DNA of 64,000 nt from Candidatus Avelusimicrobium facis (GCA_934636855.1 CAKUBH010000005.1:46370-110369); one strand, 5' to 3'; positions 6,441 to 64,000 are shown, numbered from the stretch's first letter. The notes: generated from the sequence alone by a model not told the origin. A program made the numbers and translations.

Positions 6441-6466
6441 GCCCCCGCTTCATGGCGGGGGCGCTT
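6441..6466. terminator. bidirectional rho-independent terminator
   Basis: GCCCCCGC-ttcatg-GCGGGGGC hairpin between convergent genes. Confidence 0.5.
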
Positions 6467-6959: not shown

Positions 6960-6972
6960 AGTGGAGTTCCTT

Positions 6973-13859: not shown

Positions 13860-14113
13860 AGAACGGATTTGAAAGCAAGCTCAGCCGCTTGGAAGAAATT
13901 GTGGCCAAGCTGGAAGAGGAACAAACGGATTTGGACGCGTCGGTCAAATTGTTTGAAGAGGGCCTGGCGCTTTCCAAAGAGATGACGCAAAAATTGCAGG
14001 AAGTAAAATTTAAAGTAACCGCGCTTAAGAAAAAGGGCGCCCAATTGCTGAACGAGCCTTTTGACGCGCCCGCCGGCAGCGCCGACGAAACGGACGAAGC
14101 CGATGGCAAGTAA
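13856..14113 (+). CDS. xseB: exodeoxyribonuclease VII small subunit
   Basis: FESKLSRLEEIVAKLEEEQTDLDASVKLFEEGLALSKEM is the XseB helical hairpin signature. Confidence 0.85.
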   Translation: MKNGFESKLSRLEEIVAKLEEEQTDLDASVKLFEEGLALSKEMTQKLQEVKFKVTALKKKGAQLLNEPFDAPAGSADETDEADGK

Positions 14114-33577: not shown

Positions 33578-34702
33578 ATGGAACAAACCCCCATCCCGCT
33601 GTTTAACTTGCAAAAACAACACGAATCTTTAAAACCCCAGCTCAATGCCGCCGCCTTGGATGCTTTAAATTCCATGCACTGGCTGCTGGGGCCCCAAACC
33701 GAAGCCTTTGAAAACGAATTTGCCGAAATGATCGGCGTGAAACATTGCATTACCTGCTCGTCGGGCGCCAGCGCCATTCAAATCGCTTTGGCGGCCGCCG
33801 GCATCGGCCCGGGCGACGAAGTCATCACCACCCCGTTTACGTTTATTGCCACCACGTCCTCTATTTCTCTGACGGGGGCTAAATTTGTTTTTGCCGATAT
33901 TGACCCGCGCACCTACAACATTGACCCCAAAGACATTGAGCGCAAAATTACCAAGAAAACCAAGGCTCTGTTGCCCGTGCACCTCTACGGCTACCCCGCC
34001 GATATGGACGCCATTATGAACCTGGCGCGCGAGCATGACTTGAAAGTCATTGAAGACTGCGCCCAAGCGCATTTGGCCACCGCCGACGGCGTGAAAGTAG
34101 GCGGCATTGGCGATGCCGGCGCGTTTAGCTTTTATCCCAGCAAAAACTTAGGGGCCTGCGGCGATGCGGGGGCCATCACTACCAACGACGACGAAATCGC
34201 CGACCGCTGCCGCAGCTTGCGCCACAGCGGCCGCGCCAAGGACAAAGCCTATGAATATGATTTGGAAGGGTCTACCTTGCGCATGGACGAAATCCAAGCG
34301 GCCATTTTGCGCGTGAAAATGCGCCACTTACCCGAGTGGACGGAAGCGCGCCAAAAGGTGGCAGCTTTGTACGAAGAAGGCTTGCAGGGCTTGCCCGTCG
34401 TTACGCCGCCGGTGCCACCGGCGGGCTATTCCCAATCTTATTATGTGTATACGCTGCGCGTAGAAAACCGCGACGAGCTGCAAAAATACCTCAAAGAGCA
34501 CGGCATTGGCTGCGCGGTGTACTACCCGGTGCCGCTGTACAAACAGCCGGCGTATAAACACTTGGGGTTGAAAGCGGAAGACTTCCCCAACGCCGAAAAG
34601 GCCGCCAAAGAAGTCCTTTCCATCCCCATGTTCCCGGAGCTGACGCAAGAACAGGTGTCCCGCGTATGCGACACCATCCGTGCGTTTTACGAAGGAAAAT
34701 AA
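33578..34702 (+). CDS. DegT/DnrJ/EryC1/StrS family PLP-dependent aminotransferase (nucleotide-sugar aminotransferase)
   Basis: Fold-type I motifs; PLP-lysine region [15 protein letters not shown]; 374 aa. Confidence 0.85.
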
Positions 34703-38043: not shown

Positions 38044-38059
38044 GTTTTCACGTGAAAAC
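38044..38059. other. parS-like site GTTTTCACGTGAAAAC
   Basis: Third identical copy, between lepB and the upstream glycosyltransferase. Confidence 0.6.
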
Positions 38060-39162
38060 TATTTAATTTCTGTATAAATTTTAAGATAAATTTGTTCCGG
38101 GGCCGGATAAAACCGCTCCATTCTCGCCCGCGCTGCGCGGCCCATTTTTTGGCGCAGCGCCGTATTTTCCGCCAACTCCGTCATCAAGACGGCCAGCAGA
38201 ACGGGGTCTTTCCCGGGAAACACAAAGCCATTTTCCCCGTGGCAGACCACCCGGGGCATATCGCCAACTTTACTAACAATAGCCGGTAAACCGCAAGCGG
38301 CAGCTTCCAGCAAGGCCAGCGGCAAACTCTCTATATAAGAGGGCAAAACAAAAATATCCGCTGCACAAAGATATTTGTAAACATTGCTTACTTCTCCTGC
38401 AAAAACAACCGCCTTTTCCAGCCCCCCTGCTTGCACTTGGCGGTGTAAATTTTCTTGCTCAGGCCCATCCCCCACCAGCAAAAGTTTACTCTGCGGATGT
38501 TTGGCATAAAATAATTGAAATGCCTGTAGCAAAAGGGCGTGGTTTTTCTCTTTAGACAGCCGGGCAACACAAGCAAAAACAACCTCTTGCGCCGAAAACC
38601 CCAGCTCCGCCCGCGCTGCCGTGCGCAAAGCATTATCCGGGCGAAACCGCTGCAAATCTACGCCGTTGGCCACCCGGCGTACCTTCTCCCGGGCGTATTT
38701 TTGCTTTTGCAGCAAAAAGTCCGCCGTAGATTGGGACTCGGCACAGCTCATATCGTCCCCATCCTTCAAAGCGCGGTCCAACAGGCGTAAAACATAGCCT
38801 TTACGGGATAGGTCATAGTGCGGCGTGGTGAGGAGCGTAAACGGGGTACGCCGCTTGGCCAAGCGGCAAAATTGAATAGCCCGGTAGAGCCCGGCATGTA
38901 CAACATCCGGGGAAAAGGCTTGTATCTGCGCCACCAGCCGCGCCAAAGCGCCCGCCGTTTCCAAAGGGCGGTACTTGCCGCGCAAGTCCAAAGACTCCAC
39001 CGATAAGCCCGCCTCTTGCAGCTGCCGGCCCAACGGCCCCAAGGGCCGCAGAGAAAGCACGTTTACTTCGTGCCCTGCGTGAAACGCCGCTTGGGCCAAG
39101 GTAAAAAAAGCCCTTTCGGCCCCGCCGACTTCGGTGCTGGTGCAAACATACAAAATCTTCAT
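38059..39162 (-). CDS. glycosyltransferase family 4 (GT-B, GT1 superfamily)
   Basis: N-terminal MKILYVCTSTEVGGAERAFF; C-terminal EGFGLPxxEA-like motif (ESLPLALLEAAACGLPAI). Confidence 0.75.
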   Translation of the reverse strand: MKILYVCTSTEVGGAERAFFTLAQAAFHAGHEVNVLSLRPLGPLGRQLQEAGLSVESLDLRGKYRPLETAGALARLVAQIQAFSPDVVHAGLYRAIQFCRLAKRRTPFTLLTTPHYDLSRKGYVLRLLDRALKDGDDMSCAESQSTADFLLQKQKYAREKVRRVANGVDLQRFRPDNALRTAARAELGFSAQEVVFACVARLSKEKNHALLLQAFQLFYAKHPQSKLLLVGDGPEQENLHRQVQAGGLEKAVVFAGEVSNVYKYLCAADIFVLPSYIESLPLALLEAAACGLPAIVSKVGDMPRVVCHGENGFVFPGKDPVLLAVLMTELAENTALRQKMGRAARARMERFYPAPEQIYLKIYTEIK

Positions 39163-39264
39163 GTTCTCATTATAGCAAAGTTCAACCGATGAGACGAAAG
39201 AAGCTTCCAAAGAGAAAGGCGCCAAAGCAAGCTTTGGCGCCCAAATACAAACCGACGGCTCAAA

Positions 39265-41570: not shown

Positions 41571-41890
41571 TTTATGGCCTCCGCCTGTTTTATATTAATA
41601 AGAATATTTCTTGTTTAATTATAGCAAATTTTCATTTCTCTTTTATTATAAGTTTTGTTTTATACTTTCTCAAGCACTAAAAAAGGATTAGGAAAAACAA
41701 AAATCAAAAACTGTGGATAATTTTTGTTTTTGTGTTTTTTGGGGTAAATTTTAAAAAATAACCCCTTTTTTTATTTTTATAGGGTAGGGATATTTATCTA
41801 AACCTTAAAACGCCCAAATTAAGCTGTTTTTTGGCTTAAAAGCCAAAATGGCTTTTTTTAGTGTTGACGCTGCCCTGAATAATTGCTAAG
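41571..41890. other. AT-rich dnaA-upstream spacer with a DnaA box (candidate oriC part 1 / divergent promoter region)
   Basis: GC content far below the flanks. Perfect DnaA box TGTGGATAA at 41712-41720. TTGACG-17-TAAGAT promoter-like element abutting the dnaA ATG. Coding-strand bias switches here. Confidence 0.5.
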
Positions 41891-43306
41891 ATGAAAGATA
41901 TCTTATTTTATGGCGGCATAGCAGTGGATACTCTTTCATCTCATGAAGTTCTCACACCGGTATTTAAAGAAATAGAAACCATCTTAGGCAAAGACACCTA
42001 CGATATGTGGTTGCGTCCGGCGGCGTTTCAATTTACGGACAAAACCTTAAAAATAGAGCTGCCCAACCCTTTTTGGCAAAAAACCATTCAGAACCGCTAC
42101 GAACATATTATTAAGGATGCCTTTTTAAAACATACCGGGCTGGACATTGCCGTGGTGTATGAAATTAAAGAAGTTAAAGATCCCGTCCAATCTGTATTGG
42201 ACGAAGCCCAAGTGCCGCTGCCCCCGGTGGCTGCGCCGGTGCCCGTAATTAAGAAAAATCCTTTTCCGGCCTGTTTAAATTCGTCGTACCGTTTTGATAA
42301 TTTTATAGAATCACCGTCCAACCGCTTTGCCTACCGCATGGCGGAAGCTGTGGTCAATCAATTGGGCAACCGCCAAAATAACCCTTTGTTTATTTACAGC
42401 GCCCCCGGGCTGGGCAAGACCCATTTGTTGCATGCCATCGGCAACCAAATTTTACAAAATAATCCCGGCGCCCGCGTCTTATATAAATCCGGGGAAGAAT
42501 TTGTGAATGATTATATAGACGCGGCTTTGTCTAAAGACAAGGAAAGTTTCCGCCGCAAATACCATCATCTGGATTGCTTTTTGATGGATGATATCCAATT
42601 TGTGGTAGGGACCACACGCGTAGGCAGCGAGGCAGAATTTTTCTATACCTTTAATACCTTGTTTGACAATAAAAAACAAATTGTTTTAACCTCAGACAAA
42701 ACCCCGCAGGAGCTGCAGTTGGACCCCCGTTTGTCTTCCCGTTTATTATCGGGGATTGTAACGGAAATCAAGCTTCCGACGGTGGAAACGCGTATTGCCA
42801 TTTTGCGCCAAAAAAGAGACAGTATTAATTTTGACATCGGCGATGATGTACTTTCTTTTATTGCCGAGGGTATTCAAACCAATATCCGCGAGCTGGAAGG
42901 CTCTTTATTCAGGCTGGTGTCTTATTGCAGCACGCACGGCGTAACGCCCACCATTGCCATTGCCAAAGAATTATTGGCCGATATTTTAATTCAGCAAGAA
43001 CGCAAATTGGCCGTCCATGTAAATGCTATTAAAAAAGTGGTGGGAAAACATTTTAAAATTGAAATGGAAGATTTTAATTCCAAGCGCAAAACCCAATCTG
43101 TGGCGTGGCCGAGGCAAATAGCCATGTTTCTGACCACCGAACTGACGGACCTGTCCCTGCCGGAAATCGGCCGGGAATTTAACCGGGACCATAGCACGGT
43201 GGTGCACGCGCGGGATTTGGTAAAAGACAAAGTGAAAGCCGATCCCTTTTTTGCAGCCGAAATCAACCAAATTATTGCAGATATTAAAGCTGTGGATAAA
43301 AAGTAA
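41891..43306 (+). CDS. dnaA: chromosomal replication initiator protein DnaA
   Basis: AAA+ Walker A GLGKTHLL, sensor motifs, C-terminal DnaA-box-binding HTH; 471 aa. Confidence 0.95.
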
Positions 43307-43472
43307 TTTCGGTGGATAAACAGGGGATAAATCCGTACCGGCAGAGGATAACTGAAATTTGTGTGCATAATGTATATAACCTTTTTTACTTGTACACAAG
43401 CAATGATAAATTTTGTATAGGGCAACAAACAAATCCACATCATCAACAGGACATATTAATAGGATTAATAAT
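43291..43472. other. dnaA-dnaN intergenic DnaA-box cluster plus AT-rich stretch (candidate oriC part 2)
   Basis: TGTGGATAA (43291-99, perfect), GGTGGATAA (43312-20), GGGGATAAA (43324-32) and GAGGATAAC (43344-52) in one orientation, followed by ~100 bp of AT-rich sequence. Confidence 0.55.
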
Positions 43473-44581
43473 ATGAAAATAAATATTACTAAAGAGACCC
43501 TTTTGGAAGGAATACAGGTGATTTCGGCCGGTGTTTCTTCCCGCACGACGCTGCCGATCTTGCACAACTTCTTAATGGAAACGCAAGGCGACAAAATCAA
43601 ATTGGTACGCACGGATATGGAAATGGCCACCGTGCACTATATTCAGGCTGAGGTGGAAGAAGAAGGCGCCTTGACGGTGCCGACCAAAGAATTTGCCGAC
43701 ATCATCAAAAACCTGCCCGACGGCAAAGAAATTAACCTGTTCACCGGGGAAAATAATAAATTTCATATTAAATCCGGCAAGAGTAAATTTTGGGTGATTG
43801 GCACGCCGAAAGCGGAGTATCCGGCTATTCCCGAAATTGAAAAAACGGGCAGCGTCAGCTTGAGCCCGCTGGAGCTGCAAACGATGATTGATAAAACGGC
43901 TTTCTCCGCCTCTACGCAGGAAACCCGTTATATTTTAAACGGCTTATTATGGAACAATACCGCCGAGAAATTTGAAGTGGTAGCCACAGACGGCGGCCGT
44001 TTGGCGGTGGCCACGCACCCGGCTTTGCCCGACTCCGGCGAATTTAAAATCATTGTTCCGACGAAGATTTTAAACGAAGTGGTGCGTTTTATTTCTTTGT
44101 CCAAGCCGGATAAAGAAACGCAAATTCACGTCAATGTGGCCTCCAACCAAGTCAGCTTTGAAATGAAGGAAACGACCTTTATTTCCCGCCTGATTGAAGG
44201 AAATTTCCCCAATTATAACCAAGTCATCCCGACGAAAAAGAATATGTCTTTTGATGTTTTTACCAAAGAACTCTTGGCGGCGTGCCGCCGGGCGGCTTTG
44301 TGCTCGGGCGAGTTTGGCAGCACGGTGAAGTTTCATATGGAAAATAATATCATGACGGTGTCTTCCACTTCGCAAAATATGGAATTTACCGACGAATTGC
44401 CCATTGAATATACCCAAGAGGCTTTTGACTGCGCCTTCAACCCGCAATACATCATTGATGTGCTTAAAAACGTCGGCAGTGAAAAAGTCGTCTTTTCTTT
44501 TGTAAATGCTTCTCAGCCGGTATTGATTGAGCCGGTCGGCAAAGAGGACTTGAAATACGTCATCATGCCGGTGAGAATTTA

Positions 44582-44582
<1 letters not shown>
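43473..44582 (+). CDS. dnaN: DNA polymerase III beta sliding clamp
   Basis: MKINITKETLLEGIQ... three-domain beta clamp; start at the internal Met of the listed ORF. Confidence 0.9.
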
Positions 44583-47363
<2,781 letters not shown>

Positions 47364-47429: not shown

Positions 47430-49946
47430 ATGAGCGAAGAATTGACGGGGGCGGCCCAAGAGCCGCAGCAAAACAACGTAGATTTGTTCGGCAATATCCA
47501 ACAGCGTGACATCGCGGGCGAAATGCGTTCGTATTACATTGATTACGCCATGAGCGTGATCGTCGGCCGCGCCTTGCCGGACGTGCGCGACGGCTTAAAG
47601 CCGGTGCACCGCCGCGTGCTGTATTCCATGAACGAAATGGGCCTGAAATACAACAAGGCCTATAAGAAATCCGCCCGTGTGGTTGGCGACGTACTCGGTA
47701 AATACCACCCGCACGGCGACACCGCCGTATACGACACCTTGGTGCGTATGGTGCAGGATTTCTCCTTGCGCAAACCTTTAATTGACGGGCAGGGCAACTT
47801 CGGCTCTATTGACGGAGACTCCGCCGCCGCCATGCGTTACACCGAGTGCCGTTTGCAGAAAATCGCCGACGAGATGCTCAACGATTTGGACAAAGAAACC
47901 GTCAAAATGATCCCCAACTACGACGGCTCTTTAATGGAACCGTCCGTGTTGCCGGCCAAGGTGCCTGCCTTGCTGGTGAACGGTTCGGCCGGTATCGCCG
48001 TCGGTATGGCCACCAATATTCCCACCCACAACTTGGGCGAAGTGTGCGACGGGATTATCGCCTACATCAAAGATCCGTCCATTTCCACCAAAGAGATGAT
48101 GAAGATCATCAAAGGGCCGGATTTCCCCACCGGGGCCATTATTCGCGGTACCAAGGGCATTTATGAATATTTTGAAACGGGACGCGGCAGCGTCAAAGTG
48201 CAGGCCACCACGGAAATTGAAGAAAGAAAAGGCGGCCGCGAAGCCATTATCGTAACGGCTATTCCGTACCAGGTCAACAAAACGGCCTTGATTGAAAGCA
48301 TCGTGGCTTTGGTGCGCGATAAAAAAGTAACCGATATTGCCGACATCCGCGACGAGTCGGACCGCCGCGGGATGCGCCTGGTCATTGAAGTCAAACGTGA
48401 CGGCAATGCCCAAGTGGTGCTCAACCATTTGTACAAACACACCCAGCTGCAGACCTCCTTCCCGGTGAATATGCTGGCCATTGTGGACGGCCGCCCGCGC
48501 GTGTTGTCGCTCAAAGAAGTGATGAAAGCGTATGTCAAACACCGCCAGGAAGTGGTAACCAACCGCACCAAATTTGACTTGAACAAAGCCCAGCGCCGCG
48601 AACATGTGTTGGCGGGCTTGCTGATTGCCATTGCGCACATGGACGAAGTGGTGGCCATTATCCGGGGCAGCAAGGATGTCCCCAGTGCCAAGCTGGCCTT
48701 GATGAACACCTTTAAACTCTCCGAAGTGCAAGCCCAAGCCATTTTGGATATGCGCTTGCACCAGCTGACGCAGTTGTCTTCTGCGGCCATTGAGCAAGAG
48801 CAAAAAGACTTGTTAAAACTCATTGCCGAGCTGCAAGGCATTTTGGCCGACCCGCAAAAGATTTTGGACATTATTGTCAATGAGTTGACCGAGCTGAAGA
48901 AAAACTACGGCGATCCGCGCCGTACCGAAATCGGCCCGGACATGACGGACTTCTCTATGGAAGATTTTATTGAAAAAGAGGACGTCGTCATCACCATTTC
49001 CAACGACGGCTACGCCAAACGCATCCCGCTCTCTACCTACAAGAGCCAAAACCGCGGCGGCAAAGGCATTATCGGCGGCAAGACCAAAGAAGAAGATTTT
49101 ATGGAGCATTTGTTCATTACTTCTTCTCACGCCACGATTTTGATGTTTACCAACCGGGGCCGCGTGTTTGCGTTGCGCGCGTTTGAAATCCCCGAGGGCA
49201 ACCGTATGTCCAAAGGCAAGGCCCTTGTCAATCTGTTGCAGTTGACCGGGGAGGAAAAAGTAACCTCCGCCGTGGCCATTGAAGATTTCAACCCCAAGGA
49301 ACACGAGGGAGAAAAAGCCTATCTGTTTATGTGCACCCGCATGGGCAGCGTCAAACGCGTGGAATTGGACCAGTTTGCCAATATCCGCAAATCCGGCATC
49401 ATTGCCATCGGCCTGGACGAGGGGGATGTGCTAATCAGCGTGCAAATGACCTACGGCCAAAGCGATATCATCATTGCCACCAAGCACGGCAAGTCCATCC
49501 GCTTTGACGAGCAAGAAGCCCGGGCCATGGGTCGCCCGGCCAAAGGCGTGCGCGGCATTAACTTGAGCAAAGGCGACGAAGTGGTCGGCATGGAGCAAGC
49601 CCCCAGAGAGGGCGAGCAACCCGATGTGCTGTCCGTCTGTGAAAACGGCTTTGGTAAACGCACGGCCTTTAGCGAATACAAACGCCAGCGCCGCGGCGGG
49701 ATGGGCGTAATTACCATCAAGACCAGCGAACGCAACGGCTCCGTGGTGGGCATTAAGTTGGTAGACGAAAGCAAAGACTTAATGGTCGTTACGGAAAAGG
49801 GCATGACCATTCGCACCCGCTGCGAAGAGATCCGCTCCGTGGGCCGCAATGCCCAAGGGGTACGGTTGGTCAAGCTGGAAGAGGGAGACAAAATTGCCCG
49901 CATCGCTCCGGTAGTCAAGGACGAAGAAGACACCACCGAAGCGTAA
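47430..49946 (+). CDS. gyrA: DNA gyrase subunit A
   Basis: Active-site region AAMRYTE, QRDR-like context, C-terminal beta-pinwheel repeats; 838 aa. Confidence 0.95.
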
Positions 49947-50122: not shown

Positions 50123-51601
50123 ATGGGGGAGCACAGACTGATGAGGACCAATCCACACATTTTAGAAATCAATACCCGCGCGTGGTTAGACCGCTTGCAG
50201 ACCAAGCATGAGCGGCGCTTTTTATTGGACGAAATCCCGGACCAATATTGGCAAATGTTTAAAGAGCGCGGCTTTGATGCCGTGTGGCTGATGGGCGTGT
50301 GGACACCCAGCCCCAAGGCGGCCGAAATCGCCCGCACCAACCCGGAGGTCCAACAACAAATCCGCCAAGTGGTGCCGGATTTTGACCCCCAAGATATTAT
50401 CGCCTCTCCCTATGCTATTTATAAATACGAGCCTGCGGCGGACTTGGGCGGCGAAGAAAGCCTGAAAAAATTACGCGCCAAGTTAAACGCCATGGGCATT
50501 GCGCTTTTCTTAGATTTTGTGGCCAATCATACCGCCTTAGACTGCCCGGCGGTTACGTCCGACCCGGATTTGTATATCAACACCGGCAAAGAGGCTCCGC
50601 GCGTGCACAAAGATTGGTTCTTCCAAAACCCCAACGGGATTTGGATTGCCCACGGACGGGACCCGTATTTTGCTCCGTGGACGGACACGGCGCAGCTGAA
50701 CTATTTTAATCCCCGCACCAAAGAAGTCATGCTGGGGCATTTGCTTAAAGTGGCGGACTTGTGCGACGGCGTACGCTGCGATATGGCCATGCTGACCCTG
50801 AATAAAGTCCACCGGGATACCTGGTGGGAATTCATCGGCGGCAATTTGCCCAAAGAAGAGTTTTGGTCCGTTGCGCTGGAAAAGGTGCATGAAAAGCACC
50901 CGGAATTTACCTTTATTGCCGAAGTATATTGGGGTCTGGAGTGGGAAATCCAGGAAATGGGGTTTGACTACACCTATGATAAGGTCTTGTATGACCGCCT
51001 GCGCTTTTCCACGCCCGAGAACATCAAAGGGCATTTGGGGGCGGAGCATTTGTTCCAAATGCGCTCCATTCGCTTTACCGCCAACCACGATGAGGAAGAA
51101 AGCTTAAAAGCCTTCGGGCGGGAGAAATCCCTGGCCGCCACCACGCTGATTGCCACCTTGCCCGGCGCGCGGATGATACATCTTTTTCAAATGATGGGCC
51201 GCCCGGTGCGCTTGCCCATTCAATATGTCAAGGAGTCCTTTGCAGAGGATAAATGGGTGCGGGATTACTATGACAAACTGCTCAAAATTGCCTCCCAGCC
51301 GGCTTTTCACGGCGGGCAATGGTCTTTGACGGAAGTGTCCGCCTGCGGCGCAGACGGCTCCTGGCGCAATGTGCTGGCGTGGACGTGGAAGCAAATGAAT
51401 ACGGCCTCCACCGTGCTCATTAATTACAGCGACCGGCCCGCCACCTGCCATGTCAAACTGCGTATGGCCGGCGGCGAGGGAGAACAGATGAAAGAGGAAT
51501 TTTCCGAACAGCTCTTCCCCGTTACCGCAGAGGTAGCCCAAAAAGGGTTTGGCGTTTCGCTTAAGCCTTTTGAGAGTAAGATTTTCACGTATGCCATTTA
51601 G
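50123..51601 (+). CDS. glycoside hydrolase family 13 (alpha-amylase family) protein
   Basis: GH13 conserved regions I-IV: DFVANH, GVRCDMAM, FIAEVYW, FTANHDE. Confidence 0.75.
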   Translation: MGEHRLMRTNPHILEINTRAWLDRLQTKHERRFLLDEIPDQYWQMFKERGFDAVWLMGVWTPSPKAAEIARTNPEVQQQIRQVVPDFDPQDIIASPYAIYKYEPAADLGGEESLKKLRAKLNAMGIALFLDFVANHTALDCPAVTSDPDLYINTGKEAPRVHKDWFFQNPNGIWIAHGRDPYFAPWTDTAQLNYFNPRTKEVMLGHLLKVADLCDGVRCDMAMLTLNKVHRDTWWEFIGGNLPKEEFWSVALEKVHEKHPEFTFIAEVYWGLEWEIQEMGFDYTYDKVLYDRLRFSTPENIKGHLGAEHLFQMRSIRFTANHDEEESLKAFGREKSLAATTLIATLPGARMIHLFQMMGRPVRLPIQYVKESFAEDKWVRDYYDKLLKIASQPAFHGGQWSLTEVSACGADGSWRNVLAWTWKQMNTASTVLINYSDRPATCHVKLRMAGGEGEQMKEEFSEQLFPVTAEVAQKGFGVSLKPFESKIFTYAI

Positions 51602-51604
51602 TTT

Positions 51605-51633
51605 TAAAACCCCGCTGCGGCGGGGTTTTTTGT
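51605..51633 (+). terminator. rho-independent terminator
   Basis: AAAACCCCGC-tgcg-GCGGGGTTTTTTG. Confidence 0.65.
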
Positions 51634-51671
51634 GCTGTTTTTTTCTAATTTAAAATTAGCGTCCGCAACGC

Positions 51672-51753
51672 CGTGCGATTTACTACAATATAAGCAGGCA
51701 ATTTGGGCGGTGCGAAGCGCGCTTTTTTCGTGCGAAATTTATTATAATATAAG
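51672..51753 (+). promoter_or_regulatory. tandem 23-25-bp direct repeats CGTGCGA(T/AA)TTTA(C/T)TA(C/T)AATATAAG upstream of the atp operon (candidate duplicated promoter/operator)
   Basis: Copies at 51672-51694 and 51729-51753, ~21/23 identical, each carrying a TACAAT/TATAAT -10-like hexamer. Confidence 0.4.
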
Positions 51754-51789
51754 AAAGAACTTACCGCCCGGTAAATAAAACGGATTTGT

Positions 51790-52044
51790 ATGCGGATAGG
51801 ACCTTTTACCCCCAAAGACCATGTAGTTATCACCACCTTAGGGCTGGAATTTGCCCTGGCGGTAGCGGCGGGGACGGCGGGCGGCTATTGGGCGGACCGG
51901 CACTGGCATTGGGCCCCTTGGGGTACGGTGGCCGGCGTGGTGCTGGGGTTTGCTTTCGGGATGTATATTTTAATCCGCCAGGCGGGCGAGATGGCCCGCG
52001 CGGACCAAGCCAAGAAGGAAGAGAAAACCAATGGAAGTATCTGA
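51790..52044 (+). CDS. AtpZ/AtpI-like small membrane protein of the ATP synthase operon
   Basis: 84 aa with two predicted TM helices, immediately preceding and overlapping atpB. Confidence 0.5.
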   Translation: MRIGPFTPKDHVVITTLGLEFALAVAAGTAGGYWADRHWHWAPWGTVAGVVLGFAFGMYILIRQAGEMARADQAKKEEKTNGSI

Positions 52045-52792
52045 GACCATAGCGCATCACATTTTAGACCATGATTTTGGTGTCATGCTGGGCGGGTGGC
52101 ATGTGCCCGTGACGGCGCATACATTGACCATGTTTTGCATCAGTTTCGTGCTGCTGGCGGTGTGCTGGCTGATGACGCGCCAAGGCAGCAGCGTGTTTGC
52201 CCGCCTGATGCGCACGGTGGGGGAAGAATACGTCGCCTTTATGCGCGACGGCATTGTACTGCCGGGCATGGGGCCGGAAGGCCGCGCGTTTTTATCTTAT
52301 TTCTGCACCTTGTTTTTGTTTATTCTGTTTGCCAACTTGGCCGGGCTGATTCCGCAGGTCAAAACCATTACGTCCAATATTTCCGTAACCGGGGCCTTGG
52401 CCCTGTGCTCGGGCGGGCTGATTGTGTACTGCGGGCTGAAATTTCACGGCCTGTGGGGGTTTATTAAAAGCTTTGTGCCCGGCGGGACGCCGTGGTGGCT
52501 GGTGCCGCTGATTTTCCCGTTGGAAGTAGTCAGCCTGCTTATCCGCGTGTGCGTATTGGCTATTCGTTTGTTTGCCAATATGCTCTCGGGGCATATGGTG
52601 CTTTTGAGCTTGTTGCTGATAGTGTTTATCATCGGGCAGATGAGCAAAATCGCGGGGACCGGCTCGGCCGTGCCCGCCATGGGGTTAGAGATTTTTATGA
52701 CGATGCTGGAGCTGTTGGTGGCGTTTTTGCAGGCGTATGTGTTTACTTTGCTGACCTCCATTTACGCCGGGCTCGTCATCCATTCGCATTAA
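52031..52792 (+). CDS. atpB: F0F1 ATP synthase subunit a
   Basis: Conserved Arg helix LAIRLFANMLSGH. Confidence 0.9.
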   Translation: MEVSETIAHHILDHDFGVMLGGWHVPVTAHTLTMFCISFVLLAVCWLMTRQGSSVFARLMRTVGEEYVAFMRDGIVLPGMGPEGRAFLSYFCTLFLFILFANLAGLIPQVKTITSNISVTGALALCSGGLIVYCGLKFHGLWGFIKSFVPGGTPWWLVPLIFPLEVVSLLIRVCVLAIRLFANMLSGHMVLLSLLLIVFIIGQMSKIAGTGSAVPAMGLEIFMTMLELLVAFLQAYVFTLLTSIYAGLVIHSH

Positions 52793-52828
52793 TTTCACAG
52801 CGGGCTTGCCCGCAAAAGGAGAAAACAT

Positions 52829-53056
52829 ATGGAACTTGCTGCACTGAAATTCATCGCTGCCGGCATTGGCGCCGGTTTGACCGTGATCGGGGCCGCTTTG
52901 GGCTTGGGCAAAATCGGTAATGCCGCCCTGGAAGGCACCGCCCGCCAACCCGAAGCCGCCAACGCATTGCGCACGACCATGATCATCATCGCTGCCTTGT
53001 TGGAAGGGGCCGCCATGTTGGGCTTGGTCATCTGCTTGCTGACCATGGTGATGTAA
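52829..53056 (+). CDS. atpE: F0F1 ATP synthase subunit c
   Basis: 75-aa hairpin proteolipid with GxGxGxG N-helix and ion-binding E in ALLEGAAM. Confidence 0.9.
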   Translation: MELAALKFIAAGIGAGLTVIGAALGLGKIGNAALEGTARQPEAANALRTTMIIIAALLEGAAMLGLVICLLTMVM

Positions 53057-53077
53057 TCGTTTCCGTACGAGGAAAGC

Positions 53078-53581
53078 ATGGATAAATTGTTAAATCCCGA
53101 TTTCGGGGTCTTGGCGCTGACCGTCGTCAATTTTTTGCTTTTGGTGTGGCTCTTGCACAAATTCGCGTGGAAGAGCATCATCGGCGCGCTGGAAAAGCGC
53201 GAAAAGCAAATAGCCGACGATAAAGCCGCCGCCGCCCAAGCCCGCCAAGCGGCCCAACAGGCCCGGGCGGAGCTGGACGCCAAGCTGCAGCAGATTGCCT
53301 CGGAAGCGGCCCAAAAAATGCAGGAAGCCGTGGCCTTGGGCAATGCCCAAAAAGAGGCCTTGCTGGAACAAACGCAACAGCAAGCCCAACGGCTGCTCGC
53401 TCAAGCCAAAGAGCAAATAGAAGCGGAAAAAAACAAGGCCTTACAGGACGTACGTGCCCAAGTGGCCGAAGCGGCTCTGTTGGCTGCGGCCAAAATTACC
53501 CGCCAACAGCTTGATGCGCAGGCGGCCCAGCAGACCGTGGACGAGGTGCTGCGCCAGGTCAGCCGGGAGCAGGCACGTTGA
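53078..53581 (+). CDS. atpF: F0F1 ATP synthase subunit b
   Basis: N-terminal TM followed by a long Ala/Gln/Glu-rich helix. Confidence 0.8.
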   Translation: MDKLLNPDFGVLALTVVNFLLLVWLLHKFAWKSIIGALEKREKQIADDKAAAAQARQAAQQARAELDAKLQQIASEAAQKMQEAVALGNAQKEALLEQTQQQAQRLLAQAKEQIEAEKNKALQDVRAQVAEAALLAAAKITRQQLDAQAAQQTVDEVLRQVSREQAR

Positions 53582-53585
53582 TTTT

Positions 53586-54116
53586 ATGAAAAGCACAGAC
53601 CGCATTTTAGCCAAACGCTATGCCCGCGCTTTTGACGCGCTCAGCGCCACCGCGCAGGAGGCGGCCCAAAACGCGCAGGCGCTGCAGACGGCGGCGCAAG
53701 CTTTGCAGCAGGCACAGGGGTGGATGACGGACCCGGCGGTGGCCGTGTCGGACAAAAAAGCCCTGGTGGCGCAGCTGTTTGCCGGGGAAAAAACGGTCTG
53801 CGGCTTTTTACAGCTGCTGCTGGAAAGCAAACGCTACAACCTGCTGGGCGCGTGTGTACAGGAGGTGCAGGCGCTGCTGGACCGGCGGTTGGGCGTGGTG
53901 CGCCCGCAAGTGCAGACGGCTTTTGCGCTGAGTGCGGCGCAGCAAAAACAGGTGGAAGACACCCTGGCCCGCTTTGCCCAGGCAAAAGAGGCACACGCCG
54001 TTTTTACGACGGACCCGGCGCTTTTGGGCGGTTTACGCGCCCAAGTGGGGGATGTACTGATAGAGGGCAGTTTGAAGGGCCGATTTGAAAAATTAAAAGA
54101 AGAAATCATCAAATAA
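53586..54116 (+). CDS. atpH: F0F1 ATP synthase subunit delta
   Basis: Start at the Met after the atpF stop; OSCP-like [11 protein letters not shown]-domain. Confidence 0.75.
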
Positions 54117-54127
54117 ACGGTGCAATT

Positions 54128-55654
54128 ATGGCAATAAGACCGGAAGAAATAACCAATATCATCAAAGAAAAAATAGAAAAGTTTGATACCCAGGCAGACT
54201 TGAGCGAAGTGGGCACCGTCATCCAAGTGGGCGACGGCATTGCCCGCGTGTATGGGCTCAACCAGGTCAAAGCCTCGGAGCTGGTGGACTTCGGCAACGG
54301 GGTCAAGGGCATGGCCATGAACCTGGAGTACGACAATGTGGGTTGCGTGCTGATGGGCTCGGACGACTTGGTGCACGAGGGTGGCACCGTCAAACGCACG
54401 GGGGAAGTAATTAGCATCCCGGTGGGGCCGGAGGTCATCGGCCGCGTGGTGGACCCGTTGGGCCGTCCGCTGGACGGCAAGGGGGAAATCCGCGCCGACA
54501 AACATATGCCGCTGGACATTGTGGCCCCCGGCATTGTGGAGCGCCAACCCGTTAAGCAGCCGCTGCAGACGGGCCTCAAGGCCATTGACGCGTTGGTGCC
54601 TATCGGCAAAGGCCAGCGCGAACTGATTATTGGCGACCGCCAAACCGGCAAGACCGCTATTGCCATTGACGCCATTATCAACCAAAAGAATTTACCCGCC
54701 GACCAGCGCTGCTTGTGTATTTATGTAGCCGTCGGCCAAAAGAACAGCACCGTGGCCCAAGTGGTCAAAACCTTGACCGACTTTGGCGCCATGGAATACA
54801 CCACCGTAGTGGCCGCCACGGCGGCGGACCCGGCCTCTATGCTCTACATTGCGCCGTATGCCGGTTGCGCCATCGGGGAATATTTTATGTGGCAGGGCAA
54901 GGACGTGCTGATTGTGTATGATGACTTGTCCAAACACGCCCAGGCGTATCGCCAGATGTCCTTGCTGCTGCGCCGCCCGCCCGGCCGTGAAGCGTACCCG
55001 GGGGACGTGTTTTATTTGCATTCCCGTTTATTGGAGCGCGCTTGCAAGCTTTCTAAAGAAAACGGCGGCGGGTCGCTGACGGCCTTGCCCATTATTGAAA
55101 CGCAAGCCAACGACGTGTCGGCCTATATTCCGACCAACGTCATCTCTATTACCGACGGACAGATTTACTTGGAAAGCAGCCTCTTTTTAAGCGGTATCAA
55201 ACCCGCTATCAATGTGGGGCTGTCTGTGTCGCGCGTCGGGGGTTCGGCCCAGCGCAAAACCATGCGTAAAGTGGCCGGGACCTTGCGTGTAGATATGTCC
55301 CAATACCAAGAGTTGGAAGGCTTTGCGCAATTCGGCTCCGAGCTGGACAAAGAATCCCAACGCCAAATTGCCCGCGGCAAACGCATGAGCGAGTTACTCA
55401 AACAGGACCAATACCAGCCCATGCGCCTGAGCCAGGAAGTATTGGCCTTGTTCGCCGGCGTCAACGGCTATACCGATGAGGTGCCCGTGGAGCAAGTGCG
55501 CGCATATGAAAAGCAGCTCTTGGCCTGGGCCGGCAGCAGCCAAAAGGCCTTGCTGGACGAACTGGACGCGGCGACGGAACTGACGGACGAGTTGACGCAA
55601 AAAATCAACGCGGCCCTGACGCAATTTAAAGAAATTTTCAAAGGTGCAAAATAA
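54128..55654 (+). CDS. atpA: F0F1 ATP synthase subunit alpha
   Basis: Walker A GDRQTGKT; 508 aa. Confidence 0.95.
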
Positions 55655-55666
55655 GGAGACCTCCCA

Positions 55667-56593
55667 ATGGATAAGAAAAAATATTTGGTAACCGGCGGTG
55701 CCGGATTCGTGGGCAGCAACATCGCCAAAACCTTAGAAGCCCAAGGGCATGAAGTTACCGTGGTGGATGATTTTTCCCACAACGGCAATTTCAAAAATTT
55801 AATCGGTTTTAAGGGCGATGTCGTCCCGGCCAATTTGTTTGAATATTTGCCGGAGGACGACTATTTTGACGCCATTTTCCACGAGGCCGCCATCACCGAC
55901 ACCACCGTCATGGACCAACGGGAAATGATGGAGCAAAATGTAGAGGCCTTCCGCAATATTTTAAATTACGCCGCCGAGAATGAAATCCCCAAAGTGGTGT
56001 ACGCTTCTTCCGCGGCCACGTACGGCAACGGCGCCGTGCCGATGAAGGAAAGCCAACCCACCCACCCGGAAAATGTGTACGGCTTTTCCAAAGTGATTGA
56101 CGACAATGTTGCCCGCAAATTTTCGCAGGATCACCAAGATATGAAGATTATCGGGCTGCGCTATTTTAACGTCTTTGGCCCCGGCGAGGGGTTCAAGGGC
56201 AAAATGGCCAGCATGGTGTTTCAGCTCTACAACCAAATGAAAGCCGGCAAACGCCCCCGCGTGTTCAAATTCGGCGAGCAAATGCGCGATTTCGTGTACG
56301 TCAAGGACGTGGTCAAAGCCAACTTGTGCGCCTTGGCCAACGGCAAAGAAACCGCCGTGTATAACTGCGGCACCGGCATTGCCCGCAGCTACAATGACGT
56401 CATTACCTGCTTAAACCGCGAGCTGGGTTTGAATTTGGAGCCGGAATACATTGACAACCCGTATCCGTTCTTCCAAAACAAGACCGAGGCGGACATGAGC
56501 CTGGCCAAGGAAAAAATCGGCTATACGCCGGATTTTACCTTGGAAACGGCCATCGCCGACTATGTGAGCATTTTGGAAGGCAAAACCAACTAA
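55667..56593 (+). CDS. hldD: ADP-L-glycero-D-manno-heptose 6-epimerase-like SDR (HldD/RfaD family), embedded in the atp operon
   Basis: TGGAGFVGSNI; YASSAATYGNG, RYFNVFGPGEG, KGKMASMVF, RDFVYVKDV and NCGTG each align with E. coli RfaD motifs (YASSAATYGG, RYFNVYGPREG, KGSMASVAF, RDFVYVGDV, NLGTG). Confidence 0.75.
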   Translation: MDKKKYLVTGGAGFVGSNIAKTLEAQGHEVTVVDDFSHNGNFKNLIGFKGDVVPANLFEYLPEDDYFDAIFHEAAITDTTVMDQREMMEQNVEAFRNILNYAAENEIPKVVYASSAATYGNGAVPMKESQPTHPENVYGFSKVIDDNVARKFSQDHQDMKIIGLRYFNVFGPGEGFKGKMASMVFQLYNQMKAGKRPRVFKFGEQMRDFVYVKDVVKANLCALANGKETAVYNCGTGIARSYNDVITCLNRELGLNLEPEYIDNPYPFFQNKTEADMSLAKEKIGYTPDFTLETAIADYVSILEGKTN

Positions 56594-56602
56594 GGACTTG
56601 TT

Positions 56603-58949
<2,347 letters not shown>

Positions 58950-58951
58950 CC

Positions 58952-59365
58952 ATGTCCAAAACGCTCAAACTCAGCCTCATTACCCCGCAAAAACAGCTCC
59001 TGGACGGCTTGGCCGTGGAGTCGGTGGTATTGCCTGCCCTGCAGGGTGAAATGGGCGTGCTGCCGGGGCATATCCCCATGATGGTGCAGCTGGATTTCGG
59101 GTCTTTGCGCTATAAACAAGACGGCCAAGAGAAAGAATTTGCCGTCTTGGGCGGCTTTGCCGAGGTGCTGCATGAGGCGGTGAACGTCTTTGCCGAAGGG
59201 GCGGACTTGGCCGAGGAAATAGACGAAGAGGCCGAAAAGCAAAAAATCAAACGCGCCAAAGAGTCCTTGTCCAGCAAAGATGCCGATATTGACTTTGAAT
59301 TGGCCGAGCTGGAGCTCAAACAGGCCATTGCCCGTATGAAGGTCAAAAAGCACCGCTTGGGTTAA
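58952..59365 (+). CDS. atpC: F0F1 ATP synthase subunit epsilon
   Basis: Beta-sandwich plus helical hairpin; 137 aa. Confidence 0.9.
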   Translation: MSKTLKLSLITPQKQLLDGLAVESVVLPALQGEMGVLPGHIPMMVQLDFGSLRYKQDGQEKEFAVLGGFAEVLHEAVNVFAEGADLAEEIDEEAEKQKIKRAKESLSSKDADIDFELAELELKQAIARMKVKKHRLG

Positions 59366-59385
59366 TCTACGGATGTTTTGTTTTC

Positions 59386-59421
59386 AAAAGCGCATGGCTT
59401 ATCCCCGTGCGCTTTTTCTTT
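59386..59421 (+). terminator. rho-independent terminator of the atp operon
   Basis: AAAAGCGCA...TGCGCTTTTTCTTTT. Confidence 0.5.
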
Positions 59422-59480
59422 TGCGCCGGACAGGTTTTTTTATACAATGAAAAAGAAGTGAATTTGTTTGGAGAGGATAT

Positions 59481-60290
59481 ATGAGAAACGCAAATATTTA
59501 TGATTTCAATTGGAAAAAATTAATTGTCCCGGCGCTTATTTTGTTGGGGTTGATAGTGGCCGGAGGGTCTTATTTTACCGTGCCCGCAGGCAGTGTGGCC
59601 GTGAAGCTGCGCTTTGGCAAAATTGTGGGCTCTTACACCGAGGGGTTACACCTCAAATTGCCGTTGGTGGACAATGTGGAAAAATTCTCCGTGCGTATTA
59701 AAAAAGACTCTTTTGATACAGAGGCCTTTTCCAAAGACTTGCAGACCGTCGGTCTGACGCTGGCTATCAACCACCGCATCCAGCCCGATACCATTATTTC
59801 CATTTACCGCAACTTGGGCCCGGATTACACCAACACCGTGCTTAAACCCATGGTGGAGGAATGGACCAAGGCCGTTTTGGCCAAATATTCGGCGGAGAGC
59901 GTGATTTCCAACCGCGTGCAGGTGGCCAAGGAATTAGACGAAATTTTAAAGGCCAAAATGGCGGAAAAGCAAGTGATTGTGTCTGACATTGCCATTACAA
60001 ATTTTGAATTTTCCCCGCAGTTTTTAAAAGCGGTGGAAGAAAAACAAATCGCCGAGCAAGAGGCCAAACGCGCCACCAATTTGGTGGAAAAAGTAAAAAA
60101 AGAAGCCGAACAAAAAATCTTGCAGGCGGAAGCCGAGGCCAAATCCTTGCGCTTGCAGCGGGAAGTGGTGTCTGACAATTTGATTAAGCTGCGCCAAGTG
60201 GAGGCCCAGCTCAAGGCGATTGAAAAGTGGGACGGCCGCATGCCGACGTATATGGCCGGCGGAGAGCTGCCGTTTGTCATGGTGAAATAA
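59481..60290 (+). CDS. SPFH/band-7 (prohibitin-like) membrane protein
   Basis: N-terminal TM, PHB domain, Ala/Glu/Lys-rich coiled-coil C-terminus. Confidence 0.8.
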   Translation: MRNANIYDFNWKKLIVPALILLGLIVAGGSYFTVPAGSVAVKLRFGKIVGSYTEGLHLKLPLVDNVEKFSVRIKKDSFDTEAFSKDLQTVGLTLAINHRIQPDTIISIYRNLGPDYTNTVLKPMVEEWTKAVLAKYSAESVISNRVQVAKELDEILKAKMAEKQVIVSDIAITNFEFSPQFLKAVEEKQIAEQEAKRATNLVEKVKKEAEQKILQAEAEAKSLRLQREVVSDNLIKLRQVEAQLKAIEKWDGRMPTYMAGGELPFVMVK

Positions 60291-61619: not shown

Positions 61620-62867
61620 CTATCCCAGCTGCGGATAGAGCGGGAAGTCCTCCAGGAATTTTTCCACCTCTTTGGCTTCCGCCGCCAAATAGGCCTCGTC
61701 GGCGTGGTGGGTAATAGCGCGGTCTATCAGCTCCGCCACTTTTTCCATATCCGCTTCTTTCATCCCGCGGGTCGTTACCGCCGGGGTGCCAATGCGCAAC
61801 CCGCTGGTAACAAACGGCTTTTCCGGGTCAAAGGGAATGGTGTTTTTGTTGGCGGTGATACCGGCTTTATCCAAGGCGGCCTCCGCCACTTTGCCCGTCA
61901 GATTTTTGGAGCGTAAATCCAAACACATGACATGGCAGTCCGTCCCACCTGCCACCAGCCGGTAGCCGCGTTTTTTTAACGCTTCGGCCAAGGCCTTGGC
62001 ATTGAGTACCACTTGGTGCTGGTAGGCTTTAAACTGCGGTGTCAGCGCCTCGCCAAAGCAAACGGCCTTGGCGGCGATCACGTGCATCAGCGGTCCGCCC
62101 TGCACGCCGGGAAAGACGGCCGAATTAATCGCTTTAGCCAAATTTTCTTTGCATAAAATCAGCCCGCCGCGCGGCCCGCGCAAGGTCTTGTGCGTGGTGG
62201 TGGTTACCACATCGGCATACGGCACCGGATTGGGGTATTCTCCGGCGGCGATGAGCCCGGCATAATGTGCCACGTCGCAGGCCAAGTAGGCCCCGCAGCT
62301 GTCGGCAATTTCGCGCAGGCGTTTCCAATCAAACACGCGGGAATAATTGGAGGCTCCGGCAAAAATCAGTTTGGGTTTGTGCTGCCGGGCCAACGCGGCG
62401 GCTTCGTCGTAGTCAATTTCTTCGGTGTCTTTGCGCACGTTCATGGCCACAATGTTAAAATATTTGCCGGAAAAATTCATCGGGTGCCCGTGGGTCAGGT
62501 GCCCGCCGTGCGAAAGGTTGAGCCCCAGCACGGTGTCGCCGGGTTTGACCAAGGCCACATACACGGCCATGTTGGCCTGCGCGCCGGAGTGCGGCTGCAC
62601 ATTGGCATGCTCGGCCCCAAAGATTTTTTTGGCGCGTTCTATGGCCAAGTTTTCCGCCACGTCCACGTATTCACACCCGCCGTAATAACGTTTGGCCGGA
62701 TACCCTTCGGCGTATTTGTTGGTCAGCACAGAGCCTTGTGCCTGCATCACCGCCAGCGAGGTAAAATTTTCCGACGCGATGAGCTCTAATTTATTGCGTT
62801 GGCGTTGCAGCTCCGCCGATACGGCAGCAAAAACTTCGGGGTCTTGGGCTTGCAGTTGGGGATACAT
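61620..62867 (-). CDS. glyA: serine hydroxymethyltransferase
   Basis: PLP-lysine motif [14 protein letters not shown]; 415 aa. Confidence 0.95.
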
Positions 62868-63037
62868 AAAAACGCTCCTTTGAAACGATTTAAAAAGTAC
62901 CGCAAAAAATTTTGCGCGGTTTTCTTATATTTTACTATGAAAAACGCTTCAATTTTCATATAATTTATTAAATAAGAAATAAAATAAGCAAAAACGCCGT
63001 TTGTCGGCGTAAAAATTCCCGCAGAGGTGTAGAAAAA

Positions 63038-64000
63038 ATGGCAAAACTCACGCAAAAAGACTTCCTCAAAGGCACCATCAAACACATGGACATGAAAAAA
63101 TACAATGTGGTCCCCATGGTAGAAGCCTTTGAAAACATGGCATATACTTCCCGCGACCTGGCCCGCGCCAGCAAAATCTACCATCAAATGCTGTCCGACA
63201 AAAACTGCTCCGTTATTTTGTGCATTGCCGGCTCTTTGATTTCCGCCGGCCTGAAGAAGATTATTGTGGACATGATCCAAAACAAGATGGTGGACGCGAT
63301 TGTTTCCAACGGCGCCAACATCGTAGACCAAGACTTTTTTGAAGCATTGGGCTATAAACACTATTTGGGCGACCAGCACCACGCCGACGATAACCTGCTG
63401 CGCGACCTGCATATTGACCGCATTTACGATACCTACATCAACGAAGACGAATTGAAAGAGTGCGATGAAACCATCCACAAAATTTGCGAATATTTGGAGC
63501 CCCGCCCCTATTCTTCCCGCGAATTCATTTGGGAAATGGGCAAATGGCTGGAAAAGAACAAAAAAGGCAAAGACAGCGTTGTGTACAATGCCTACAAATA
63601 CGGCGTACCCATATTTGTGCCGGCGTTTTCGGACTGCTCTGCCGGCTTTGGCTTTGTGGCGCACCAAACCCAACATCCCGAAGCCCATGTATCTATTGAC
63701 AGCGCCAAGGACTTTTTGGAATTGACCAAAATCAAAATCAAAGCCAAAGAAACCGGTTTGATGATGTGGTCCGGCGGCGTGCCGAAGAACTTTGCGCAAG
63801 ACACCGTGGTGGCGGCGGAAATTTTGGGCGCGGAAATCCCGATGCACAAATATGCCGTGCAAATCACCGTGGCCGACGAGCGCGACGGCGCCTTGTCCGG
63901 CTCTACGCTCAAAGAGGCCTCCAGCTGGGGCAAAGTATCCACCGCCTTGGAACAAATGGTCTATGGCGAATGCACCACGCTCATCCCGCTGATCATCGGC
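63038..64000 (+). CDS. deoxyhypusine synthase-like protein (DS family), 3'-truncated by the window edge
   Basis: SD GAGGTG 8 nt upstream of the ATG. GSLISAGLKKIIVDMIQNKMVDAIVSNGANI aligns with the human DHS segment [26 protein letters not shown]. Not in the ORF track because it has no stop within the window. Confidence 0.65.
   Translation, partial: MAKLTQKDFLKGTIKHMDMKKYNVVPMVEAFENMAYTSRDLARASKIYHQMLSDKNCSVILCIAGSLISAGLKKIIVDMIQNKMVDAIVSNGANIVDQDFFEALGYKHYLGDQHHADDNLLRDLHIDRIYDTYINEDELKECDETIHKICEYLEPRPYSSREFIWEMGKWLEKNKKGKDSVVYNAYKYGVPIFVPAFSDCSAGFGFVAHQTQHPEAHVSIDSAKDFLELTKIKIKAKETGLMMWSGGVPKNFAQDTVVAAEILGAEIPMHKYAVQITVADERDGALSGSTLKEASSWGKVSTALEQMVYGECTTLIPLIIG

Follow-up and report, generated by a model that had tools for sequence, protein, structure and literature searches.

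The genes for the alpha and gamma subunits of the F-type ATP synthase, atpA and atpG, are near-universal neighbours in the atp operon, one of the most conserved bacterial gene orders. Why, then, does an enzyme gene of envelope biosynthesis lie between them in Candidatus Avelusimicrobium facis? The question is raised by a stretch of 64,000 nucleotides from this organism (GCA_934636855.1 CAKUBH010000005.1:46370-110369), referred to below as the window, in which positions 55667 to 56593 encode a short-chain dehydrogenase/reductase (SDR) of the HldD (RfaD) type. HldD is the last enzyme making the heptose donor for the inner core of lipopolysaccharide (LPS). The answer that we consider probable is that the gene encodes a genuine HldD, fixed in the atp operon and transcribed with it, whose product works as a soluble enzyme and whose position was probably favoured by selection.

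The inserted gene and its operon

Coordinates are those of the whole 64-kb window, and all features of the atp locus are on the + strand. Eight ATP synthase subunit genes (a, c, b, delta, alpha, gamma, beta and epsilon), each verified with Pfam or NCBIfam models, are contiguous and co-oriented in a locus (51790-59365) with the order atpZ-B-E-F-H-A-[308-aa SDR gene]-G-D-C. The features of the locus are the following:

51709-51733, + strand: terminator-like hairpin and T-run, with stems of 6-8 pairs, then TTTTTTCGTGC
51790-52044, + strand: atpZ-like gene for a small membrane protein, first gene of the operon (PF09527 ATPase_gene1, E 2.5e-13)
52031-52792, + strand: atpB, Fo subunit a (PF00119, E 1.1e-53)
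52829-53056, + strand: atpE, Fo subunit c (PF00137)
53078-53581, + strand: atpF, Fo subunit b (PF00430)
53586-54116, + strand: atpH, F1 subunit delta, OSCP (PF00213, E 6.7e-32)
54128-55654, + strand: atpA, F1 subunit alpha (TIGR00962, 802 bits against a cutoff of 484)
55653-55666, + strand: atpA-hldD junction, with the sequence AAATAAGGAGACCTCCCAATG
55667-56593, + strand: hldD, 927 nt, 308 aa (TIGR02197, PF01370)
56591-56602, + strand: hldD-atpG junction
56603-57508, + strand: atpG, F1 subunit gamma (TIGR01146, 245 bits against a cutoff of 194)
57528-58949, + strand: atpD, F1 subunit beta (Pfam/NCBIfam)
58952-59365, + strand: atpC, F1 subunit epsilon (Pfam/NCBIfam)
59386-59416, + strand: strong intrinsic-terminator-like hairpin, a 12-pair stem with 6 G-C pairs, then TCTTTT; the top-ranked site

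An earlier note on this DNA had described an SDR gene within the atp operon, with short spacers on both sides and the normal atpA-atpG adjacency broken. All of its open reading frames (ORFs) were found again as described. The spacers measure 12 nt (55655-55666) upstream and 9 nt (56594-56602) downstream, which leaves no room for a promoter/terminator pair, and atpA is followed not directly by atpG but by the 927-nt hldD gene. AtpA and AtpG of the window have normal lengths and family scores. The atpZ-like gene, as called, overlaps atpB by 14 nt, and the start of atpH was set at the ATG that lies 4 nt 3′ of the atpF stop codon.

Judged by family models, structural similarity and active-site residues, the inserted gene is a genuine HldD-type ADP-L-glycero-D-manno-heptose 6-epimerase. 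First, its product exceeds the cutoff of TIGR02197, the ADP-glyceromanno-heptose 6-epimerase equivalog (312 bits against 274.6), and matches PF01370 with an E value of 5e-52; its 200 bits on the narrower enterobacterial model NF008360 fall short of the cutoff there (452). Second, among solved structures the product is closest in sequence to H. pylori HP0859/RfaD (3sxp, E 1.7e-68), with 40-42% identity, and to E. coli AGME (1eq2, 2x6t). An AlphaFold2 model with a predicted local distance difference test score (pLDDT) of 85 and a predicted template-modelling score (pTM) of 0.88 matched 3sxp, 2x6t and 1eq2 in Foldseek with template-modelling (TM) scores of 0.86-0.87, ahead of all UDP-sugar epimerases. 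Third, the catalytic residues are all present. With E. coli numbering transferred through a HMMER alignment, S115, Y138, K142 and K177 of the window protein correspond to Ser116, Tyr140, Lys144 and Lys178 of E. coli HldD, the last being the second acid-base residue. The residues S116, Y140, K144, K178, N169, R209, D210 and F211 (E. coli numbering) are invariant in all 89 aligned HldDs (23 from Elusimicrobia, 8 of the Kapabacteria type and 58 others). The Rossmann motif G10-A12-G13-x-x-G16 is likewise in place, and its residues G10, A12, G13 and G16 are invariant. The protein carries no extra domain, its length being 308 aa and that of its E. coli counterpart 310 aa. These features bear out the earlier statement that it matches HldD/RfaD in all hallmark motifs; the enzyme looks native and active, belongs by sequence to a Helicobacter/Verrucomicrobia-like subfamily and, by orthology, would serve LPS synthesis in these organisms.

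Two lysines of the E. coli enzyme, Lys38 and Lys53, which presumably contact the 2′-phosphate of NADP, are replaced by H/N/D and D across the Elusimicrobia-type clade (N41 and N56 in the window protein). This replacement may indicate that the cofactor of Elusimicrobia-type HldDs is NAD rather than NADP.

The junctions contain signals for translation. Both stop codons, those of atpA and hldD, are overlapped by Shine-Dalgarno motifs: AAGGAG, ending 8 nt 5′ of the hldD ATG, and TAAGGA, 6 nt 5′ of the atpG ATG. A consensus scan of 51400-59700 gave only two convincing + strand terminators, at 51709-51733 and 59386-59416. The former lies 3′ of an upstream alpha-amylase-family gene and is likely to mark the 5′ boundary of the atp transcription unit; the latter begins 20 nt after atpC and is likely to mark its 3′ end. 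An independent promoter/terminator pair that would isolate hldD, a possibility named in the earlier note, was looked for in the same scan, and no promoter-like and no convincing terminator-like site of the E. coli-type consensus was found flanking the gene. Because no such site flanks hldD and the terminators stand at the operon ends only, hldD is, on this in-silico evidence, likely co-transcribed with the atp genes, where the earlier note has it that this must be so. Furthermore, its GC content at third codon positions (GC3) is 0.689, compared to 0.68-0.75 for the atp genes, and its codon usage matches that of its neighbours.

Distribution and origin of the arrangement

The atpA-hldD-atpG order was present in all of the approximately 46 Elusimicrobia loci examined, a sample that held no named Endomicrobium sequence, and no locus was without the insertion. 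In an HldD-based scan with one genome per GTDB species, 20 of 20 Elusimicrobia loci had the arrangement, with HldD identity ranging from 92% down to 57% and AtpG identity falling to 39-48%. A sample independent of HldD was obtained by using the AtpG of the most divergent locus as the query; the five loci chosen in this way, with matches at 46-64% identity, all carry an epimerase gene between atpA and atpG. Approximately 17 further Elusimicrobia-type loci came from a scan of metagenome contigs. In 39 Elusimicrobia loci, hldD is flanked by gaps with a median of 9 nt on either side, several loci having overlapping stop and start codons, and the HldD lengths of 305-312 aa equal those of non-embedded relatives. 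Collectively, these comparisons indicate that atpA-hldD-atpG is ancient and fixed among the Elusimicrobia sampled. The earlier note had also raised the possibility that relatives would show adjacent atpA and atpG with hldD elsewhere, as expected of a recent neutral insertion; this was seen in no Elusimicrobia locus, and such an insertion is not borne out.

Two trivial origins can be set aside. A recent horizontal insertion is ruled out by the native composition of the gene (GC3 0.689) and by its conservation to 39% AtpG identity, and an assembly or binning artefact is ruled out by the same arrangement in more than 100 independent genome and metagenome contigs.

Close homologues carry the names Elusimicrobiaceae and Candidatus Avelusimicrobium, which places the window in a gut Elusimicrobiaceae bacterium. 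The related genome of Ca. Avelusimicrobium gallicola (GCA_002159705.1) has atpA-hldD-atpG and shares the synteny of the window from gyrB through glyA. It differs by two inserts: atpC is followed by a PfkB kinase gene, and Sel1 and glyA are separated by two genes. The PfkB-family kinase (280 aa, positions 13771-14613 of locus L164) lies between atpC and an SPFH gene and is absent from the window. It was considered as a candidate HldA and rejected, with 56 bits against the rfaE_dom_I cutoff of 345, and is a generic sugar kinase.

A second occurrence was found outside the phylum. Among 60 non-Elusimicrobia hldD loci, two (L040 and L067) have atpA-hldD-atpG. All six loci inspected in the L040 clade, two of them on contigs of 1.4 Mb and 5.5 Mb, have the order atpZ-(orf)-B-E-F-H-A-hldD-G, with HldDs 57-65% identical to that of L040. 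In total, approximately 65 Kapabacteria-like loci with atpZ-B-E-F-H-A-hldD-G were collected (L040, L067, L081-L088 and approximately 55 metagenome loci). The genes atpD and atpC lie outside this locus, hldD often overlaps the atpA stop codon by 4 nt (ATGA), and the HldD lengths of 316-321 aa again equal those of non-embedded relatives. The metagenome contigs were searched with a DNA pattern for the junction, in which C-terminal motifs of HldD are followed, after 90-120 nt, by the AtpG motif IT.AM.MV. The 72 pattern matches were all true hldD-atpG junctions, approximately 55 of them Kapabacteria-like and approximately 17 of the Elusimicrobia type; no third lineage appeared among them, which is weak evidence since the pattern is restrictive. 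In Ignavibacteriales proper (L037, L050, L057 and L080), hldD lies away from the atp genes.

The public records of the two first-found loci carry other names: L040 (CAZCLJ010000189.1) is titled Hyphomicrobiales and L067 (CAZWVD010000035.1) Gammaproteobacteria. Their HldD homologues are named Candidatus Kapabacteria, Kapaibacteriota, Ignavibacteria or FCB group. These HldD relatives, together with a Bacteroidota-like operon layout, rule out a proteobacterial origin, and by sequence the record labels or the binning look wrong.

Several other genes accompany these operons. A GT10 fucosyltransferase gene stands directly downstream of atpG in L081 (7927-8943), and a GT2 gene stands downstream of atpG in L083 (8492-9130), after a small opposite-strand gene with an RNA recognition motif (RRM). 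These glycosyltransferases 3′ of atpG could reflect a wider link between envelope glycans and the atp operon, or chance. In Kapabacteria-type and environmental Elusimicrobia operons, an ORF of 91-109 aa that has no Pfam match lies 5′ of atpB, and it is between atpZ and atpB wherever the locus extends far enough upstream. The window has no such ORF, and its atpZ overlaps atpB directly. The ORF may be a divergent AtpI-like gene; its positions are:

L085, 1170-1499: ORF 5′ of atpB
L086, 389-715: ORF 5′ of atpB
L087, 458-772: ORF 5′ of atpB
L088, 320-607: ORF 5′ of atpB
L089, 102-377: ORF 5′ of atpB
L166, 157-453: ORF 5′ of atpB

Did the two lineages acquire the arrangement once or twice? In a bootstrapped neighbour-joining tree of 86 HldDs, the Elusimicrobia clade (bootstrap 99) and the Kapabacteria-type clade (bootstrap 100) were each recovered, Elusimicrobia grouped with Verrucomicrobia/Methylacidiphilales and Helicobacteraceae apart from all others (bootstrap 100), and a grouping of Elusimicrobia with the Kapabacteria type had a bootstrap of 0. 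An indel points the same way: exactly 28 sequences, those of Elusimicrobia, Verrucomicrobia and Helicobacteraceae, lack a 7-residue segment ahead of GEQMRDFVYV that is kept in the Kapabacteria-type and all other HldDs. Each embedded clade nests inside an ordinary HldD subfamily. For both clades, the nearest non-embedded relatives have ordinary surroundings. The Helicobacteraceae, whose HldD is of the same subfamily as that of Elusimicrobia, have a gmhB-hldD-hldE-gmhA operon, and in a metagenome-assembled genome of Verrucomicrobia a single gene separates hldD from a likely kdsB, a gene of the cytidylyltransferase family (PF02348), at a distance of approximately 1 kb. The operon is contiguous in Elusimicrobia and split in the Kapabacteria-like lineage, and identities between the two lineages (57-60% for AtpA and 32-36% for AtpG) are ordinary inter-phylum values. 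A single origin followed by transfer of the whole operon between phyla is ruled out by the HldD subfamilies, the operon architecture and these ordinary identities. Because the HldD subfamilies and the operon layouts differ, the most parsimonious account of these sequences is that a lineage-typical hldD was captured at this junction twice, independently.

How the position may be explained

In the explanation that we favour, hldD would have been fixed between atpA and atpG in the ancestor of a large part of Elusimicrobiota and kept since. It would be transcribed from the atp promoter on one atpZ...atpC mRNA and translated from its own Shine-Dalgarno site overlapping the atpA stop codon. Heptose-donor synthesis would then be expressed constitutively and in proportion to ATP-synthase expression, with HldD acting as a soluble enzyme and not as a component of the ATP synthase. 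In Kapabacteria-like Bacteroidota, a different HldD subfamily was captured separately at this junction. Because of this independent capture, the location was probably favoured by selection, through co-expression and/or an alpha/gamma junction that tolerates inserts, rather than reached by pure chance.

Several considerations weigh against this explanation. First, we infer the selective advantage of the position from convergence and conservation only, and an insert in an essential operon is hard to lose, which inflates the apparent conservation. Second, the promoter and terminator scan was built on an E. coli-type consensus, from which the signals of these phyla may differ; in eight relatives (L009, L013, L015, L017, L018, L086, L087 and L142) there is a gap of 100-330 nt at one junction, which could hold signals. 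Third, gmhA, hldE (or hldA/hldC) and gmhB were not found in the 64-kb window by Pfam scans of most ORFs of at least 175 aa and tblastn with GmhA, HldE and GmhB seeds, and tblastn likewise brought up none of GmhA, HldE and GmhB in any of the flanks of the atp-embedded hldD genes. GT9 heptosyltransferases are absent from the larger Pfam-scanned ORFs of the window and were not sought in the flanks. Within the window and flanks examined, hldD is thus detached from the other heptose-pathway genes in both lineages, and for this reason less conventional readings stay alive at low probability.

The alternative that survives best, although it appears unlikely, is a frozen accident, in which a normal HldD landed in the atp operon by chance and its position has no adaptive value. 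Such an accident would persist, since precise excision from an essential and tightly packed operon is unlikely and both gene and operon are needed. The enzyme is entirely ordinary, no feature specific to atp-embedded HldDs was seen, and one ancestral event per lineage could account for the conservation within each. Moreover, hldD is mobile in other phyla, where it is found sometimes with hldE or gmhA and sometimes alone. However, two different HldD subfamilies, in differently built operons, were captured at one and the same junction, and spacings of 0-15 nt and overlapping stop and start codons have been kept in many members over deep divergence. Taking approximately 30 independent non-Elusimicrobia lineages and possible intergenic sites of the order of 1,000-2,000, the chance of a repeat capture at the same junction is approximately 1-3%, which is a rough estimate and not a computed statistic.

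It is improbable that the gene encodes an HldD-like SDR of different chemistry, acting on another nucleotide sugar or in a pathway other than that of the LPS core (for example, heptose for an S-layer glycan or capsule, or a different sugar linked to ADP or GDP). The lack of any other heptose-pathway gene found in the window or flanks, the replacement of Lys38/Lys53 and the score below the NF008360 cutoff would fit such a role. Against it stand the TIGR02197 equivalog score, the invariance of the second base K178 and of the RDFVYV substrate loop, and the relationship to HP0859, whose depositor name is ADP-L-glycero-D-manno-heptose-6-epimerase and which, in addition to its 40-42% identity, falls in the same clade of 100% bootstrap and shares the indel.

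The least probable alternative, which we regard as very doubtful, is that HldD, a protein that binds ADP-sugar and NAD(P), moonlights by associating with F1, either helping alpha3-beta3-gamma to assemble or adjusting ATP-synthase activity to nucleotide-sugar or redox state, its gene position serving co-translational assembly. Convergent insertion precisely at the alpha/gamma junction in two phyla, the stop/start overlap with atpA in many members, and the separation of hldD from heptose genes in both lineages, with which it is often clustered elsewhere, are in its favour. Nevertheless, embedded HldDs are as long as their non-embedded relatives and have gained neither a domain nor an extension, they keep all residues of catalysis and substrate contact, each embedded clade falls among ordinary HldDs of its own subfamily, and AtpA and AtpG have normal lengths and family scores. 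Furthermore, E. coli HldD is a homopentamer, without an obvious fit to the symmetry of F1. The suggestion of a moonlighting SDR subunit made in the earlier note is therefore disfavoured by the absence of an extra domain, the intact catalytic residues and the ordinary, lineage-typical HldD subfamilies. A second, ATP-synthase-linked role of HldD in both lineages, besides or instead of heptose-donor synthesis, for example as a chaperone of alpha3-beta3-gamma assembly or as an F1 regulator sensing ADP-sugar or NAD(P), is equally doubtful; if true, it would explain two independent captures at the alpha/gamma junction and their retention there, away from the heptose genes.

Significance, surroundings and comparison with known systems

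The enzyme family and the type of atp operon are known, and the locus is an exception to a conserved gene order without a demonstrated new mechanism. No description of hldD/rfaD within an atp operon was found in the literature, an earlier mention in the E. minutum genome paper being possible. That an unrelated envelope-biosynthesis gene is fixed in the atp operon through the sampled depth of one phylum, and that this is repeated independently in a second lineage, amounts to a replicate of a kind that nature rarely provides and speaks for selection on gene position itself. Under the soluble-enzyme explanation, the locus would offer a concrete example of outer-membrane (LPS core) synthesis tied to bioenergetics through transcription; a far less likely prospect is an unrecognised accessory protein of the F-type ATPase. 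The atpA-hldD-atpG order is also a synapomorphy-like marker that could help in assigning contigs to Elusimicrobiota and Kapabacteria, several such contigs being wrongly labelled in public records. In addition, ADP-heptose is an innate-immune agonist, and constitutive hldD expression in gut Elusimicrobia may bear on its production.

The window offers some further context. A cluster of dnaA (41891-43306), dnaN (43413-44582), gyrB (44895-47363) and gyrA (47430-49946) lies approximately 8 kb from the atp operon. There is a perfect DnaA box upstream of dnaA (41712-41720), and three DnaA-box-like 9-mers lie within or beside the dnaA-dnaN spacer (43291-43370). This region is probably the replication origin, in which case the atp operon would be origin-proximal. 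Listed below are further envelope-polysaccharide genes of the window and two genes for outer-membrane proteins (OMPs), in keeping with a diderm envelope. The start of the window (52-1062) holds a gene of the squalene/phytoene synthase family (PF00494, E 9e-50), and five ORFs of 177-389 aa have no Pfam match at E < 1e-5 or 1e-6. The genes and ORFs concerned are:

2949-3881: second SDR epimerase/dehydratase, 310 aa
27301-27918 and 32108-32767: two OMP beta-barrel proteins
33578-34702: DegT-family aminotransferase
38059-39225: GT4 glycosyltransferase
1041-1652: ORF without Pfam match
4698-5639: ORF without Pfam match
6465-6998: ORF without Pfam match
17195-18007: ORF without Pfam match
62786-63955: ORF without Pfam match

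Compared to known systems, the locus combines familiar parts in an unfamiliar order. First, the 39-kDa subunit NDUFA9 of complex I is an SDR-fold nucleotide-binding protein that was recruited to a bioenergetic complex and lost its ordinary enzymatic context. The likeness is a conceptual analogy only, consisting of an SDR fold and a bioenergetic complex; the window HldD keeps a complete active site, and nothing here indicates physical association.

Second, the window protein shares with HldD/RfaD/GmhD (E. coli 1EQ2/2X6T; H. pylori HP0859, 3SXP) the extended SDR fold with its GxxGxxG motif, the Ser/Tyr/Lys triad and second base Lys178, the FNVxGP and RDFVYV loops and a length of approximately 310 aa. 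It differs from the E. coli enzyme in lacking Lys38 and Lys53 and in a 7-residue deletion. The genomic settings differ as well: hldD of the window is placed between atpA and atpG without a heptose gene nearby, whereas in Helicobacteraceae the gene lies within gmhB-hldD-hldE-gmhA, and in E. coli it heads the hldD-waaF-waaC operon.

Third, the Kapabacteria-like operon has the same gene family at the same junction, with short gaps and the same catalytic residues. Its HldD, however, is 37-40% identical to the window protein and has the 7-residue segment, its atpD/atpC are elsewhere, as is usual for the Bacteroidota/Chlorobi group, and Shine-Dalgarno motifs are not evident there.

Finally, compared to the canonical atpIBEFHAGDC operon, the window has all eight structural subunit genes in canonical order and tight packing, with a small atpZ/atpI-type gene in front and one terminator after atpC. 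The difference is the unrelated enzyme gene that splits atpA from atpG.

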